In this document: positions 4,856-10,088 of the stretch, in pieces
Position numbering within the stretch: position 1 is the first letter of the stretch
Layout: every line of letters starts with the position of its first letter
Program-made: the position numbers and the translations under genes
Notes under the pieces: model-generated
Seen by the model: only the letters and a program-made list of their open reading frames with translations
What the model was told of the DNA's origin: nothing
The model's database searches: none
Assembly (NCBI GenBank): GCA_965208835.1
Contig: OZ242358.1
Coordinates: 3,040,001 to 3,104,000, forward strand
Length of the DNA: 64,000 nucleotides
Direction: 5' to 3'
Source of the DNA: Candidatus Latescibacterota bacterium
GTDB taxonomy: Bacteria > Latescibacterota > UBA2968 > GCA-2709665

Positions 4856-6079
4856 ATGGCCCAACACTACATCAAACGATCTCTTGAACCTGTCCTCAGA
4901 AAGGCGGCCGGCGAGTTCCCGGCCGTCATCCTGACCGGTCCGCGCCAATCCGGTAAGACAACACTCCTTAAACGATTGTTCGGCCGTCAGTTTCGCTACG
5001 TATCCATAGAGCCCCCGGATGTTCGAGCGGCTGCTATCGAAGATCCGCGAGGATTCCTGGAGTTGCATCCACCACCGGTCATTTTTGACGAGGTGCATTA
5101 CGCGCCCGATCTCCTTCCCTACATCAAGGAGAAGATTGACGCATACCGCAACCGGCACGGTCAATATTTATTGACCGGCTCGCAGAATCTCCTGCTCGCC
5201 CAGAAGGTCACCGAGTCGCTTGCAGGCCGCACTGCCGTTCTTCGCCTGCTGCCGCTGTCGATGCGTGAATCCGAAGGCCGTCCTCAGACTCCCTTCGTCT
5301 GGGAACGCGATAGCCAGTCTTCCGCGAGTCCGACTTCCGGTTTCGGCGAACTGTGGCGGGACTTCCTTCAAGGCGGCTATCCGGAACTCGCGAACCAGCC
5401 TCATCGGGACGTCTCCCTCTGGCATTCCAGCTACATACAGACCTATCTCGAGCGGGACGTGCGCACGCTGCGGCAGGTCGGGGACCTGACTCAGTACCAG
5501 AATTTCCTTCGCGTACTGGCGGCCCGAAGCGCCCAACTCCTGAACCTTGCCGATGTCGCACGCGACCTCGGGGTTGCCGTCAATACGGTCAAAGCCTGGC
5601 TGTCCGTACTCGAAGCCACCTATCAGGTCATCGTCCTTCGACCGTACCACGCCAACATCGGGAAACGGCTGGTCAAATCACCGAAAGTCTATTTCAGCGA
5701 CGTCGGGACACTCTGCTACCTGGTAGGTCTAAAGGACCCGAACCATGCTGCATCGGGGCCCATGGGCGGCGCGGTATTGGAGACGGCGGTTCTGTCAGAA
5801 ATCGTTCGGACGTTGACCCACCGTGGAATAGACCCGCGGGTGTATTTCTGGCGTACCCTGGCGGGAACCGAAATCGATTTCGTGGTCGAAGCAGGCGAAG
5901 GGCTCGTCCCCATAGAAGTAAAGCTGTCCGCCACGCCCCGTCCGGCTATGGCCGCCTCCATCAGGAGGTTCCAGGACGATATGAAGGGAAGCGCCGAACG
6001 CGGATACGTCGTACACCCGGGAGACATCCGCCTACCACTTGCGCCGGATGTTACCGCTATTCCCTTAACCGATCTCTAA
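4856..6079 (+). CDS. AAA+ ATPase (AAA_14) with C-terminal DUF4143 PD-(D/E)xK-like domain
   Basis: Walker A GPRQSGKTT, Walker B IFDEVH, LTGS, ESLAGR, GGYPE, TYLERD, KSPKVYFSDVG, EIDFVV...IEVK. Confidence 0.9.
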   Translation: MAQHYIKRSLEPVLRKAAGEFPAVILTGPRQSGKTTLLKRLFGRQFRYVSIEPPDVRAAAIEDPRGFLELHPPPVIFDEVHYAPDLLPYIKEKIDAYRNRHGQYLLTGSQNLLLAQKVTESLAGRTAVLRLLPLSMRESEGRPQTPFVWERDSQSSASPTSGFGELWRDFLQGGYPELANQPHRDVSLWHSSYIQTYLERDVRTLRQVGDLTQYQNFLRVLAARSAQLLNLADVARDLGVAVNTVKAWLSVLEATYQVIVLRPYHANIGKRLVKSPKVYFSDVGTLCYLVGLKDPNHAASGPMGGAVLETAVLSEIVRTLTHRGIDPRVYFWRTLAGTEIDFVVEAGEGLVPIEVKLSATPRPAMAASIRRFQDDMKGSAERGYVVHPGDIRLPLAPDVTAIPLTDL

Positions 6080-6111
6080 AGCGACATCAATCAGATGTCC
6101 CCATCGGTCGG

Positions 6112-7626
6112 TCAAAGATTCGCCGTTTGCGCAATGGCTTCCACGAATTCAGGGGCTTCGATATCTTCGAATCTCTTTTCGATGATTGAGACCGCGCCGG
6201 TTTTCTGCCAGGTCTCCCAATGAATCCGGAGGGCCGCGTGCACGTTTTCGGCGAGGTGTTCAGGATCCGGGTGAACGATCACGAACCTGCGTCCCTCCCT
6301 TCCGGCATGCCAATCGATCAGCTCATTATTGACGCCCCTGTCACCAAAGCCGTAGCCGCAAACGACCATTGTGTTCGCATTCCCAATGGTCGATCTGAAG
6401 CAATGCCGGAGTTCGCGAAATATCCCTGAACCATAGTCCGAAAGTTTGTTAAAAGCGCCGACCAGCAGCATCCTCGGGACATCTTCCGCGTACAGAAAGG
6501 CGCCGTCAACCTCGATGCGTTGGGGATATAGATTTGGCGGAATGCGTCTGACTCTCCCGTCCCTGTAGCGGTACCAGTCTATGGATCCATGCAATTTCAG
6601 GAATGGAATCTTCACCTCCGAAGTGAGATCGCCGTTCCAGTGTGAAATGTCATCCTCGCCGCCCGAGAATCCGTCGGCGAGCGCAACATTCCGGTCCTTC
6701 AAGAAAGCCTCGACGTGGGTGTCGTGACAAAGCGTCGATATACTGGTTACGTTGAAGGCCTTGCAGGCGTATTCGACGGCATTCACCTGGCGGATGCGGT
6801 CCGGTTCGGGACGATAGAGCAGAAGGCTTCGCCTGACGACGTCCGCTATGTAGTTGCACGTTTCCCACAGTAAGCCACCCAGGTCGTCCGGAACAACCGG
6901 TTCGGGTGAATGTACCCCGGCTTCGCTTCTATCCTCTACGGTATCGGTGAGCGACAGCCAGTCGTCTCTCAACCTTTCCACAAACCGGCGAAGCGCCGGA
7001 TTCTCTGTTTCACCCAACTCATAATCCAATGCCTGCCGCGCCAGGAAGTAAATGTCCTCGTAATCGGCCTTCCTGTCGGTGTGTGTGGACAGGTAAGTCT
7101 CAGCCTCTTCATGAAGTCGCTTCACCATGCTCAGGGGTAACCTTACTTCCGCAGATTTCGGTTCTTCTCCGCCGGTTATGTAGAAACACCCGTCGCCGTG
7201 CCGCGTAACGCCCCGCCCGCCAACAACCTGCTCGGTCAGGTCTTGCATGGACGGAAAGCCAGCCGCTTCCGACGCGCCGGCGCCCAGAAATACGGCGATG
7301 TTGGTATTCCCGTAAACACCATGTCCTTCCCACAACGTAGGCTGAGGCTGATAGCGCTCCACCTCGATGCGGTCTTCCTGCTCCCGGGCCTGCAGGAGAT
7401 CGTAGGCCGTCTGCCGGCGCAACCAGTACTCGGCATCGGACCATCCGGCCTTCTCCAAACGAATCGCCATCTCGGGCGAGATGCCCGCGTGCCCGTTGAG
7501 CACCCGGGACAGGGTGTGACGTGCCACGCCCAACACCCTCGCGGCGTCGGTGACGTTCAAACAGAGCGGGTCGAGCCAGTTCTCGACAATGCTGAAACCG
7601 GGATGAGTCGGTTTCTCCATAGCCAT
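6112..7626 (-). CDS. In-frame fusion of a HigA-family (VapI-like) HTH antitoxin (aa 1-98) and a SIR2-like (SIR2_2) domain
   Basis: N-terminus: HPG...[52 protein letters not shown] (HigA). C-terminus: [39 protein letters not shown] (SIR2). Confidence 0.85.
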
Positions 7627-8093
7627 GATATTTACCCCGTGTGGGTTGTAACAATACAGCTCGACGCCGTACGCCGCGCTTCAAGCGAAAATTCCGTTCA
7701 ATTCTTAGGTCGACTGATTCACAGCAAGTTACAATCCCGAGGGCTCGGGCCGGGGAGTGACTTCGAAGAGATTCGTCCGAGGGAGGGCGTCGTGCAGGGC
7801 ATCTCCGGGCGAAGATTTCCCGGAATATGCGTGTTCTCGCGGACATAAGCGACCGCGTTGATGGAAAACGTTACACCTCAATGAATGTATCGCGTACCGG
7901 TACGCATGTCAAGTTGTTTATCGCCGATGGTTATGGATTTACATCCCTAAGGCCAATCCACGGTTGGTGTAGACTGCGAATTATTCATTTTGTCTCGTGC
8001 TGCGTTTTGGGTATCTTGGTCAGGGAGCGCAGCGAAATCATCGAATTTGGTGTGTACCGTGGCACTTCGGACCGTACATTAAAAAACGCCTGA

Positions 8094-8345
8094 ATGACAC
8101 GCCCGACTCAGCTCCGACGGCAGATTCTGGAAGGTGGATCGGATGCGAACATCCGATTCGACAACTTGCGCTCGTTACTAGGTAGGCTGGGGTTCGCTGA
8201 ACGAATACGAGGAGCCCATCACATATTCAGAAGAGAAGGTGTCGTTGAACGACTGAACCTGCAACGCGATGGAAGTCACGCGAAGCCTTATCAGGTCCGA
8301 CAGGTTCGGTCCGTTATCGTGAAATATGGCCTGAGGGAAACCTGA
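8094..8345 (+). CDS. hicA: Type II TA toxin, HicA family
   Basis: 83 aa with NIRF..L..LL..LGF.ERIRGAHHIF...LNLQ..G..AKPYQVRQV; directly upstream of hicB. Confidence 0.9.
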   Translation: MTRPTQLRRQILEGGSDANIRFDNLRSLLGRLGFAERIRGAHHIFRREGVVERLNLQRDGSHAKPYQVRQVRSVIVKYGLRET

Positions 8346-8347
8346 CA

Positions 8348-8560
8348 ATGTACAAGTACGAGATCATCCTGTATTGGAGCAACACCGACAACGCCTATGT
8401 GGCTGAAGTTCCTGAACTGCCCGGATGCATGGCCCACGGACAGACCCAGGAAGCCACGCTCGTACATGTCAACGAGGCGATCGAATTGTGGATTGACACT
8501 GCTCGGGAGTTTGGCGATCCAATACCTGAACCAAAAGGCGAACGACTGATGCTCGCATAG
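8348..8560 (+). CDS. hicB: Type II TA antitoxin, HicB family
   Basis: YEIILYWS..D.AYVAEVPELPGCMAHG.TQE..L....EAIELWI.TA.E.GDPIPEPKG. Confidence 0.9.
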   Translation: MYKYEIILYWSNTDNAYVAEVPELPGCMAHGQTQEATLVHVNEAIELWIDTAREFGDPIPEPKGERLMLA

Positions 8561-8721
8561 CGGTCATTCTCAAGATCGATCCCCGTCCTCCATCTTGGCG
8601 GTAAGGTCGAATACGCTTCCTGCTATATTCGGCATTCAAGTTCCCAGACTGCACCTCGGAATTTGGTGATCGGCTGATCAAATTACGTTTCTGCTCGACG
8701 AAAACTCCATCCAATAGACAT

Positions 8722-8753
8722 AAGACCCCGTTGGAACATTCCATCGGGGTCTT
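8722..8753. repeat. Palindromic hairpin (terminator or REP-like), related to the copy at 9382-9411
   Basis: aagaccccg-t-tggaa-ca-ttcca-t-cggggtctt. Shares agaccccg and ccatcggggt with 9382-9411. Confidence 0.6.
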
Positions 8754-8834
8754 TCTTGTAAATGCACTATTGAGGTGTAGTGTCGATGGTGATTGCTCCA
8801 AAGTCGTATCGATCCCCGAGTTCGAATACGCGAT

Positions 8835-9226
8835 TCACAGCAGCGTCACACCGTCGACCCGCGCCGCCATTTTGTCGAAGGTGTAGAGCGGATGCCTCCG
8901 GACCGCGCGGCCGCTGCCAGGATCATCAGATCGGAGCATCCGGCGCCGGACGCACGATACCGCAACGCCGCGCGAGCCACGTCGCCGGCCTCTTCAATGA
9001 CCAGGCCTTCAGTTGCCACAAGCTCCAACAATGCCTTCGAAATCCGGACGGGTGAGAATCCGTATGCCCGTTCCAGCACCAACGCAAATTCGACGATTAC
9101 CTCGCGGCAAACGAATCCTGGACGCTCCAGTGTAAGTGCCTCCAGCAGCTCGCGGGCCGCCTCGGCCTGTTGCTCGTCATCGCGCACCAGAACGCGAACG
9201 AGCACATTGGTATCAAGACCGATCAA
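8835..9226 (-). pseudogene. vapC: VapC/PIN-domain toxin with a frameshift near the C-terminus
   Basis: MIGLDTNVLVR...E...E...DL is a PIN domain. The expected tail LYTFDKMAARVDGVTLL* (stop at 8835) lies in a different frame after ~8890; the called ORF instead ends STPSTKWRRGSTV. Confidence 0.75.
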
Positions 9227-9438
9227 TTGCCGGTTGCTCCGTCTGATACCGCCCGCTCCATTTCCTCGACGGTCACGACGGCGACATGATGCTCAAGCAG
9301 GCCAAATAGCCGACTGATTGGCCGCAGGGGCAAGAGTCTCACGTCGCCGTCGGTAATGACGTACTGCGGACCAGATACACCAGACCCCGACGGGTGATCC
9401 CATCGGGGTTTATTCATCGCTTCAGAAGAAGCAGACAA
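9223..9438 (-). pseudogene. AbrB/MazE-like (VapB) antitoxin, N-terminal DNA-binding part missing
   Basis: The C-terminal half YVITDGDVRLLPLRPISRLFGLL....VTVEEMERAV resembles AbrB-type antitoxins. The TITxKGQ start is absent and replaced by a hairpin-containing segment. Overlaps the vapC start. Confidence 0.55.
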
Positions 9439-9458: not shown

Positions 9459-10088
9459 TCAGTCTGGTGACTTGCCTTCAGTTTCCTTCCTTCCGGACTT
9501 CGTAATCTGTCGCCAGACCGCGAGGGCCCGTGTTTCAAGTTCCGTTGTGGACGCCGCGTTTTCGATCACGTAGTCAGCGGCCTCAATCTTGTCGGATTCC
9601 GGCATCTGGCACGCCATCCTGTCCCTGACTTCCGCCTCGGAAAGCCCCTTTCGATCCATCGTGCGACGGATCCGCACCGCCTCAGGCGCCGTTACAACCA
9701 CCAGAACGTCGCACAGCCCACGATGGTCGCCCCACTCGAGGATCAGCGCGGCATCGATCACAACAGGGCGTTCGGGGCGTTGTGCGAGAGCGCTTCCGGC
9801 GCAGCCCTTCAACTGCTCCGCCAGTGGCGGCCATACAATGGCGTTCAGCCGGTCCCTCGCCCCGGTTGATGCGAACGCACGACGCCCCAGTTCCCGGCGG
9901 TTCAGAACTCCGTTTTCATCCAGGATTCCCTCGCCGAATGCCCTGGTCAGCGCCCGCATTACTGCCGGGTCCTCCACCGCCTGCCGCCCCACCTCGTCCG
10001 CCTCGATCACGTACGCGCCTTCCCGGGCGAAGACTTCGCAAACGCGGCTCTTGCCGGCGCCGATGCCCCCTGTCACGCCCACGATCAC
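9459..10088 (-). CDS. coaE: Dephospho-CoA kinase
   Basis: IVGVTGGIGAGKS, EADEVGR, LNRRELG..AF, LNAIVWP, R...QM, ADYVIEN. Confidence 0.95.
   Translation of the reverse strand: MIVGVTGGIGAGKSRVCEVFAREGAYVIEADEVGRQAVEDPAVMRALTRAFGEGILDENGVLNRRELGRRAFASTGARDRLNAIVWPPLAEQLKGCAGSALAQRPERPVVIDAALILEWGDHRGLCDVLVVVTAPEAVRIRRTMDRKGLSEAEVRDRMACQMPESDKIEAADYVIENAASTTELETRALAVWRQITKSGRKETEGKSPD

Follow-up and report, generated by a model that had tools for sequence, protein, structure and literature searches.

A chimeric gene joining a HigA antitoxin domain in frame to a SIR2-like domain, maintained in one genus of Latescibacterota

The 64,000-nucleotide window analysed here (positions 3,040,001 to 3,104,000 of contig OZ242358.1, assembly GCA_965208835.1, from Candidatus Latescibacterota bacterium) carries on its minus strand, at 6112..7626, an open reading frame (ORF) of 504 amino acids, which begins with ATG, ends with the TGA at 6112-6114, and joins a HigA antitoxin domain in frame to a SIR2-like domain. 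An initial annotation, made from the letters of the window, had described this in-frame fusion, and the analysis reported here confirmed it, with 12 full-length protein clusters and full-length copies in 10 of the 15 genomes searched in the window's genus. The fusion is a genuine chimeric gene kept by selection. As to how it works, we tentatively prefer, with somewhat less than even confidence, a self-repressing chimera, in which the HigA domain would hold the protein at a low level by acting on its ancestral operator and the SIR2-like domain would serve as a nucleotide-pocket or oligomerisation module whose NAD+ hydrolysis is attenuated or dispensable.

The 12 clusters recovered in the protein search were of 500-504 amino acids and covered the whole query at 95-64% identity; below them stood many proteins of approximately 380-430 amino acids that matched the SIR2 part only. 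Among representatives clustered at 50% identity, 284 proteins matched the window protein at E <= 1e-30, and in the best 150 of these a protein of 500 amino acids (P0011) was the sole complete one with both halves. A total of 61 genomes was searched, comprising that of the window (G000) and 60 relatives, with 15 of them, G000 counted, in the window's genus. The full-length fusion was restricted to this one Latescibacterota genus and was absent from all 46 searched genomes outside it. In close relatives the two halves are fused and not encoded as separate genes with a stop at the junction codon, the arrangement that the initial annotation had named as grounds for abandoning its proposal. The fused loci are syntenic, with coaE, a variable islet (Fic, PIN or HicAB), the fusion, and usually a convergent AAA_14/DUF4143 gene and an NYN gene. 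Independent metagenome contigs cross the junction without gaps, one from X5 with CAG at codon 99, and another (X8 record 26) spans 6458-7649 gap-free. An error at the junction, against which a check of reads had been advised, was not seen in these contigs, and a sequencing or assembly artefact is ruled out by the ten concordant genomes together with the independent contigs. Nor is the frame a chance ORF, given its 12 full-length clusters.

Substitution rates were estimated by the method of Nei and Gojobori for the ten fused genes, none of which contains a stop or a frameshift. The ratio of nonsynonymous to synonymous substitution rates (dN/dS) was 0.04-0.23 in the HigA part (codons 1-98) and 0.15-0.32 in the remainder (codons 99-504); synonymous divergence (dS) reached up to approximately 1, and both halves are under purifying selection. 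In a maximum likelihood tree, the 13 fused sequences formed one clade with 100/100 support, nested among the free-standing SIR2-like forms, inside the branch of these that has Cys at position 300, and with the free protein P0016 as sister. The fusion event was single and took place before the genus diversified. The alternative raised in the initial annotation, a recent read-through of a stop codon, therefore stands as to origin, since free HigA proteins stop exactly at the junction codon, but not as to age, the stop having been lost once before diversification; a recent event is ruled out by conservation over ten genomes, by the dN/dS values, and by the single fused clade.

Intact copies were not recovered from every member of the genus. 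The fusion was not found by genome search in G001, G008, and G010, and in G002 the fused gene is split in two (L009, G002:C1:5092668-5094367), lying in pieces of 324 and 196 amino acids; the match there includes approximately 190 additional bases. In G014 (G014:C1:4388684-4389289; L085, L089) and in the protein P0306, a deletion has left HigA in frame with only the last approximately 75 residues of the SIR2-like domain.

The N-terminal domain matched the NCBIfam model TIGR02607 (HigA) over residues 3-82 at 84.5 bits, against a curated cut-off of 47.7, and covered model positions 1-80 of 81, a whole-length match that places it in the HigA family and bears out the complete helix-turn-helix (HTH) domain of approximately 98 residues that had been reported. 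Solved HigA, GraA, and YbaQ structures matched this part with E values of 9e-12 to 2.8e-7. The C-terminal part matched Pfam SIR2_2 (PF13289) at 23.9 bits, just below the gathering cut-off of 24.5, which several free relatives pass (P0172, for example, at 40.6 bits), and PADLOC SIR2 models scored at most 60.6 bits on the window protein, with partial model cover. An AlphaFold2 model computed from a 113-row alignment had a mean predicted local distance difference test score (pLDDT) of 87.1 and a predicted template modelling score of 0.77; pLDDT was approximately 95 in the SIR2 part, 70-80 in the HigA part, and less than 50 for residues 86-102, a linker of approximately 17 residues that is predicted to be disordered and flexible. 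Residues 103-500 of the model aligned (VIA-align) with 8yhx_Q at Z 23.8, 8w9l_A at Z 22.8, and 8sub_B at Z 21.3, and with classical sirtuins, ThsA, and DSR2 at Z of approximately 15. Foldseek gave a probability of 1.00 for a SIR2-type fold, and the family profile built from alignment A3 (78 free and 13 fused sequences) matched 8w9l at E 1.7e-20. The C-terminal part is thus modelled as a Rossmann-type SIR2 fold. Of the SIR2_2 domain of approximately 400 residues originally proposed, the fold was upheld by the match to the SIR2 subunit of SIR2-HerA (Z 21-24), but the PF13289 score stayed under the cut-off. A separate SIR2 protein translated from an internal start was considered and rejected, as no in-frame ATG or GTG was seen near codon 106 and the ATG at 7320-7322 lies in another frame.

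The relatives of the two halves show that the fusion originated by loss of the higA stop at codon 99. A search for short proteins gave 3,996 matches, and 119 of the 120 listed (P0269-P0387) were used, the other (P0123) being left out of the count of free HigA proteins as a cut-off piece of the fusion. Among these 119 listed relatives, 94 were of 98 amino acids and 12 were of 97; they were 74-84% identical to residues 1-104 of the fusion and ended at the residue before W99. Because 94 of the 119 have 98 residues, the ancestral stop falls on codon 99. In the free higA genes of a related genus this codon is TGA, and once TAA, and in ten fused orthologues it is TGG (five), CGG (three), TGT (one), or CAG (one). 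At the other side of the junction, free SIR2-like proteins align with their start Met at codon 106, so that codons 100-105 correspond to the former spacer of 18 nucleotides, in which the GAAGGA is Shine-Dalgarno-like in sequence. All of the junction features given in the initial annotation, namely the TGG, the GAAGGA, and the out-of-frame ATG, are present. A canonical higA of 98 codons thus lost its stop and was read through the 18-nucleotide spacer into a downstream free-standing SIR2-like gene, and higB decayed into a leader after fusion. Adjacent but separate higA and SIR2 genes were found neither in 18 free SIR2-like loci nor downstream of 20 canonical higBA operons. A match reaching residue 65 in L017 and L018 was examined and is not HigA.

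A related arrangement was observed in two genomes of a related genus (G044 and G046), in which an orphan higA of 98 codons lies directly upstream of an AAA_21 ATPase and DUF4276 gene pair (L086:3887-5404 and L087:3953-5884, both on the minus strand). These orphan genes are 72-77% identical to the HigA part, have TGA at codon 99, and lack both higB and the operator palindrome. The same HigA lineage may repeatedly end up ahead of defence-type genes.

As the initial annotation had stated, no intact HigB toxin gene lies ahead of the fusion, and the pair of genes that defines a type II higBA locus is therefore lacking here. Stops occur in all three frames of 7627-8100 on the minus strand, and PF05015 (HigB) had no match upstream of the fusion at E <= 0.01, with 5 matches elsewhere in the genome. 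Direct detection of higB in the window leader gave no significant tblastn match (E 3.3) and no nhmmer match. A DNA profile built from the leaders of the window and 8 close loci matched the leader of locus L007 at E 2.6e-11; for the L007 leader in turn, E was 2.7e-10 against a DNA profile of canonical higB genes and 1.5e-4 against HigB protein. Through this transitive link, the 257-nucleotide leader is identified as a higB relic. Approximately 200 nucleotides of the relic are deleted in L010, and in G014, where the promoter lies approximately 50 nucleotides upstream of the HigA match, most of it appears to be gone too.

The promoter ahead of the relic was predicted as the best sigma-70-like site in 5900-8200, agreeing at 10 of 12 positions, and a perfect palindrome of 14 nucleotides lies in its spacer. 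In the window and 10 fused loci, the promoter block had a mean pairwise identity of 89%, as against 37% upstream of it and 60% in the relic downstream, and the 10-nucleotide core of the palindrome was intact in 10 of the 11 aligned fused loci. The exact palindrome occurs as one copy in the 5.18-Mb genome; sites with 1 mismatch numbered 5, versus 2 in a control, and all 3 that were examined lie inside ORFs. When the promoter together with the palindrome core was used as a search pattern, 38 loci were recovered: 8 were fused loci, 1 was a remnant in Latescibacterota (L071), 20 were canonical higB-higA operons from Dehalococcoidia, Chloroflexota, Acidimicrobiia, Acidobacteriota, and Bryobacterales, and 9 were unrelated. 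In the canonical operons (within L046-L083; promoter at 2501-2529 of each locus), higB starts 6-7 nucleotides after the -10 hexamer, and for this reason their mRNAs are probably leaderless. The HTH stretch, compared by eye and uncounted, is nearly the same in the fused forms and in free HigA relatives. The spacer of a sigma-70 promoter is normally unconstrained in sequence, and its conservation here argues for a bound protein, for which the HigA domain is the obvious candidate. According to two reports on HigA and GraA antitoxins, these proteins repress their own promoters (PMC6987408, PMC6393540). Since the promoter block is the best conserved upstream sequence and the palindrome is unique in the genome, we infer that the HigA domain binds the palindrome and still autorepresses; the suggestion that HigA had been co-opted as an autorepressor fits the retained promoter and palindrome.

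The state of the active site was read from alignment A3. The pocket motifs GAGxS, DGF, K344, G347/S348, and GY.F.D...N were kept in 13 of 13 fused sequences, except for G117, kept in 12 of 13. Position 300, which aligns with the Asn of the N-Y-D motif, is Asn in 49 and Cys in 25 of the 78 free proteins; of the 13 fused ones, 10 have Cys, 2 have Ser, and 1 has Phe. The window protein has Cys300 in place of the catalytic Asn. His346, in the K-L-H-G-S motif, is invariant in the free forms (78/78), while the fused forms have His in 6 and Arg in 7 of 13, a distribution that needs three changes on the tree. Conservation of D302, T391, N393, K394, and Y398 is at least 95% in free forms, and the fused forms vary at these positions; that such relaxed sites cluster around the pocket is deduced from the correspondence of motifs. 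The window copy keeps C300, D302, N393, K394, Y398, and the catalytic H346; T391A and L113F are its only departures from the free consensus at these sites. For L006 and L010, a pair in which both members have Arg346, dN/dS was 0.24 at dS 0.44. Selection thus persists in lineages with Arg346, and the trait that is maintained therefore does not require the canonical His; in the fused clade, selection probably maintains something other than catalysis. The label of NAD+-depleting effector, drawn in the initial annotation from other bacterial SIR2 domains, becomes doubtful, given Cys for the Asn and Arg for the His in 7 of 13 fused clusters under purifying selection, although the window copy does keep the His.

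Under the preferred reading of a self-repressing chimera, transcription would still start from the old higBA promoter, and the HigA domain, as a dimer, would occupy the palindrome in the promoter spacer, so that the protein would repress its own synthesis and be held at a low, self-limited level. The SIR2-like domain would be a payload on a flexible linker, acting as an oligomerising module with binding or slow turnover of an NAD(+)/ADP-ribose-type ligand, coupled to the repressor, and not as an explosive NAD+-depleting suicide enzyme; the domain keeps its dinucleotide-pocket motifs, and ligand binding and any physiological output are proposed for it. No target is visible for a purely regulatory role, and hence the SIR2 part must supply some output. 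Several observations weigh against this reading. The chief one is that the only clear operator is that of the gene itself, the examined 1-mismatch sites being intragenic. In L005, moreover, the palindrome core is disrupted. The gene is also dispensable in the genus, because 5 of the 15 genomes lack an intact copy. His346 is present in the window copy, in five other fused clusters, and in all 25 Cys-type free relatives, so that the window copy could still be catalytic, catalysis may still matter in the sub-lineage that bears His346, and Arg might functionally replace His in the chemistry.

A different possibility, the main idea of the initial annotation, is an autorepressed single-gene abortive-infection effector, in which the SIR2 domain would be an active NADase, HigA would limit its dose or dimerise it, and infection or stress would lift repression or trigger assembly, resulting in NAD+ depletion. 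The nearest folds are indeed NADase subunits of SIR2-HerA defence systems, free relatives stand in mobile and defence contexts, the window gene lies in a variable islet of toxin-antitoxin (TA) genes, the window copy keeps GAGAS together with the five residues D302, H346, N393, K394, and Y398, and the promoter and putative operator are conserved. The catalytic apparatus speaks otherwise. In work on DSR2, an Asn (N133, beside Y134 and D135) and a His are named as catalytic (PMC11263360), and this Asn corresponds to Cys300 here; in work on a type III Sir2-HerA, an Asn mutant had no NADase activity and Sir2 alone had none (PMC13434337). No HerA gene is adjacent to the fusion, whose neighbours are AAA_14/DUF4143, HicB, PIN, and coaE, and the DUF87 matches in the genome lie approximately 1.5 and 2 Mb away. 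Moreover, Arg346 occurs in 7 of 13 fused clusters, with dN/dS still near 0.24 afterwards, and neither the protein nor its free relatives matched a PADLOC model over full length, the best score being at most 67 bits. On balance we regard an active NADase effector as possible but unlikely. It is very improbable that the product is a functionless accident, a tolerated read-through riding on a useful orphan HigA and slowly decaying: an intact copy is missing from five of the 15 genomes in the genus (one split, one deleted, three with none found), P0306 is also a deletion form, and active-site residues drift, but core fold motifs are invariant, and SIR2 dN/dS of 0.15-0.32 over dS of up to approximately 1, in ten genomes free of stops and frameshifts, would be unexpected if these 1.2 kb evolved neutrally.

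Lability is typical of antitoxin domains, and there are known toxin-antitoxin proteins that consist of a single chain, which, with the exposed and disordered linker of the AlphaFold2 model (residues 86-102), would accommodate a TA system in cis, where HigA docks on and inhibits the SIR2 domain until linker cleavage or displacement of HigA frees the effector. No SIR2 has HigA as its cognate antitoxin, however, the fusion arose by accidental read-through, and drift of the active site argues against a dangerous toxin in need of a brake, and we consider a cis-acting system highly improbable. An equally slim chance is given to a guard-type sensor, in which HigA would keep its HigB-binding surface as bait for HigB toxins of invading plasmids or phages, and binding would lift autorepression or rearrange the SIR2-like domains and so elicit a NAD-directed response. 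In its favour, HigA is the more strongly conserved half (dN/dS 0.04-0.23), and this HigA lineage has many close free-standing relatives in public metagenomes and in metagenome-assembled genomes (MAGs) of several phyla. Some MAGs with free relatives, and some runs that hold part of the window stretch, are labelled sponge-derived; no RNA run was among those listed for this stretch.

The closest structural counterpart of the C-terminal domain is the SIR2 protein of SIR2-HerA (Nezha; 8yhx, 8w9l, 8sub, and 8j4u), with a root-mean-square deviation of 3.0-3.6 Å over approximately 295-307 residues, the helical insertion included, and with the motifs GAGxS, [N/C]-[Y/H]-D, KLHGS, and GY.F.D..IN aligned with those of the fusion; the fusion differs in having Cys for the motif Asn and an N-terminal HigA domain, and sequence identity is only 14-19%. 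The SIR2 protein of SIR2-HerA was deposited as a dodecamer (titles of entries 8sub and 8sxx). DSR2 and ThsA share the SIR2 core fold and the layout of catalytic motifs with the fusion, which lacks the C-terminal sensor of DSR2 and in the scans made showed neither the SLOG domain nor the ThsB partner of ThsA. For Thoeris, the PADLOC ThsA match had an E value of 0.017 over 27 residues, and Pfam scans of the protein and of the scanned neighbours gave no SLOG or TIR, no search aimed at ThsB or TIR having been made. For SPARSA, Aga_SIR2 matched at 56.7 bits over the SIR2 core only, and no Argonaute family was seen in the scanned neighbour ORFs, which were not covered by a dedicated Argonaute search. 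Canonical higBA shares with the fusion a full-length HigA domain and the promoter, in which a palindrome with a GTACCGGTAC core lies between the -35 and -10 elements, whereas in the fusion the toxin gene has decayed, the higA stop has been lost, and approximately 400 residues of an unrelated enzyme fold have been added.

Free SIR2-like proteins (approximately 390 amino acids; P0016 and P0026, for example) are 45-55% identical to residues 106-504, carry no HTH, and adjoin integrases, transposases, GmrSD, Fic, reverse transcriptase, and TA genes. No common partner gene of these relatives was found, and neither they nor the fused protein gave a full-length PADLOC match. On these grounds, and with no HerA adjacent to the fusion, the free relatives are regarded as an unclassified solo SIR2-like family with a fold like that of the SIR2-HerA type. 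Their N-terminal extensions contained no Pfam domain, and no longer proteins with other domain fusions were matched, which is weak evidence.

In the logic of its parts, the fusion resembles two groups of known proteins with unrelated folds, and the likeness is one of analogy only. NrtR-type one-component regulators combine an HTH with a catalytically dead, NAD-metabolite-binding enzyme fold, and here also an HTH is joined to an enzyme-derived pocket with catalytic residues that are no longer conserved. Proteins of the CapRel type are single-chain toxin-antitoxin proteins, which likewise combine an effector with an antitoxin-like module. One public name for a 504-amino acid orthologue is 'HigA family addiction module antidote protein', and a full-text literature search, outside whose cover lay approximately 1.7 million PMC articles, returned no description of a HigA-SIR2 or HTH-SIR2 architecture, in line with the remark in the initial annotation that it was unrecognised. 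Both halves are of known kinds, and the novelty lies in their combination, in the record of how the gene was born, and in the drift of its active site.

The case shows the birth of a new multidomain gene codon by codon, with steps that can be read in living relatives: the loss of a stop at the junction of a TA gene and a defence gene, the decay of the toxin, the retention of the antitoxin promoter and operator, and then the relaxation of catalytic residues under purifying selection. A leftover part of a TA system appears recyclable in this way as a built-in regulator. If HigA does autorepress, the gene would be a natural single-gene design for dosing a potentially toxic sirtuin-like protein; if the SIR2 pocket is non-catalytic, SIR2 would be a further enzyme fold reused for sensing in transcription factors; and if the guard-type reading were true, a TA remnant would have been turned into an immune receptor for other TA elements. 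The fusion is confined to one uncultured genus and is dispensable there. Coordinates of the gene, its upstream region, and the neighbouring islet are given in Table 1.

Table 1. Features of the fused gene, its upstream region, and the adjacent islet (window coordinates)
Feature	Position	Strand	Remark
HigA domain, codons 1-98	7333..7626	-	XRE-type HTH antitoxin and repressor module
Codon 99, TGG (Trp)	7330..7332	-	site of ancestral higA stop codon
Codons 100-105, 18 nt, including GAAGGA at 7324-7329	7312..7329	-	former higA-SIR2 spacer, now in predicted disordered linker
SIR2-like domain, codons 106-504	6115..7311	-	predicted fold, profile match, dN/dS
SIR2 motif GAGAS	7270-7284	-	
SIR2 motif C300-H301-D302	6721-6729	-	
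SIR2 residue H346	6589-6591	-	
SIR2 motif GAFNK	6445-6459	-	
Decayed higB pseudogene, now 257-nt 5' leader	7627..7883	-	transitive DNA homology
Relic higBA promoter: -35 TTGACA (7912-7907), 17-nt spacer, -10 TACATT (7889-7884)	7884..7912	-	predicted
Perfect 14-nt palindrome GCGTACCGGTACGC in promoter spacer	7892..7905	.	putative HigA operator
83-aa ORF ahead of HicB	8094-8345	+	no Pfam match at E <= 0.001
HicB	8348-8560	+	
PIN-domain gene	8846-9226	-	
71-aa ORF overlapping PIN gene	9223-9438	-	

The islet at 8094-9438, between the fusion and coaE (9459-10088, minus strand), consists of TA genes, and its content varies among relatives, in which Fic, PIN, and HicAB occur. No conserved defence partner of the fusion is present at the fused loci; the neighbouring AAA_14/DUF4143 gene was considered as a partner and rejected, being convergent and truncated or absent in L001, L002, L005, L006, and L007.

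No known RNA family was matched in 5900-8200 at E <= 0.1. Within the higB relic, a short inverted repeat (CCCGAG..CTCGGG, 7736-7749, minus strand) is partly conserved in close relatives; it may form a small hairpin in the leader or may simply be left over. All four metagenome runs show a several-fold increase in contig depth over 7407-7540, which encodes the HTH, and this likely reflects many higA paralogues and homologues in the communities. The genome of the window (G000, contig C1) contains 10 HigA-family and 5 HigB-family matches. Among them are tandem copies of higBA near 1.13 Mb and one copy approximately 9 kb from the fusion, at 3037934-3038513, and two other HigA matches from the same genome, among those listed, are 52-54% identical to the fused HigA domain.

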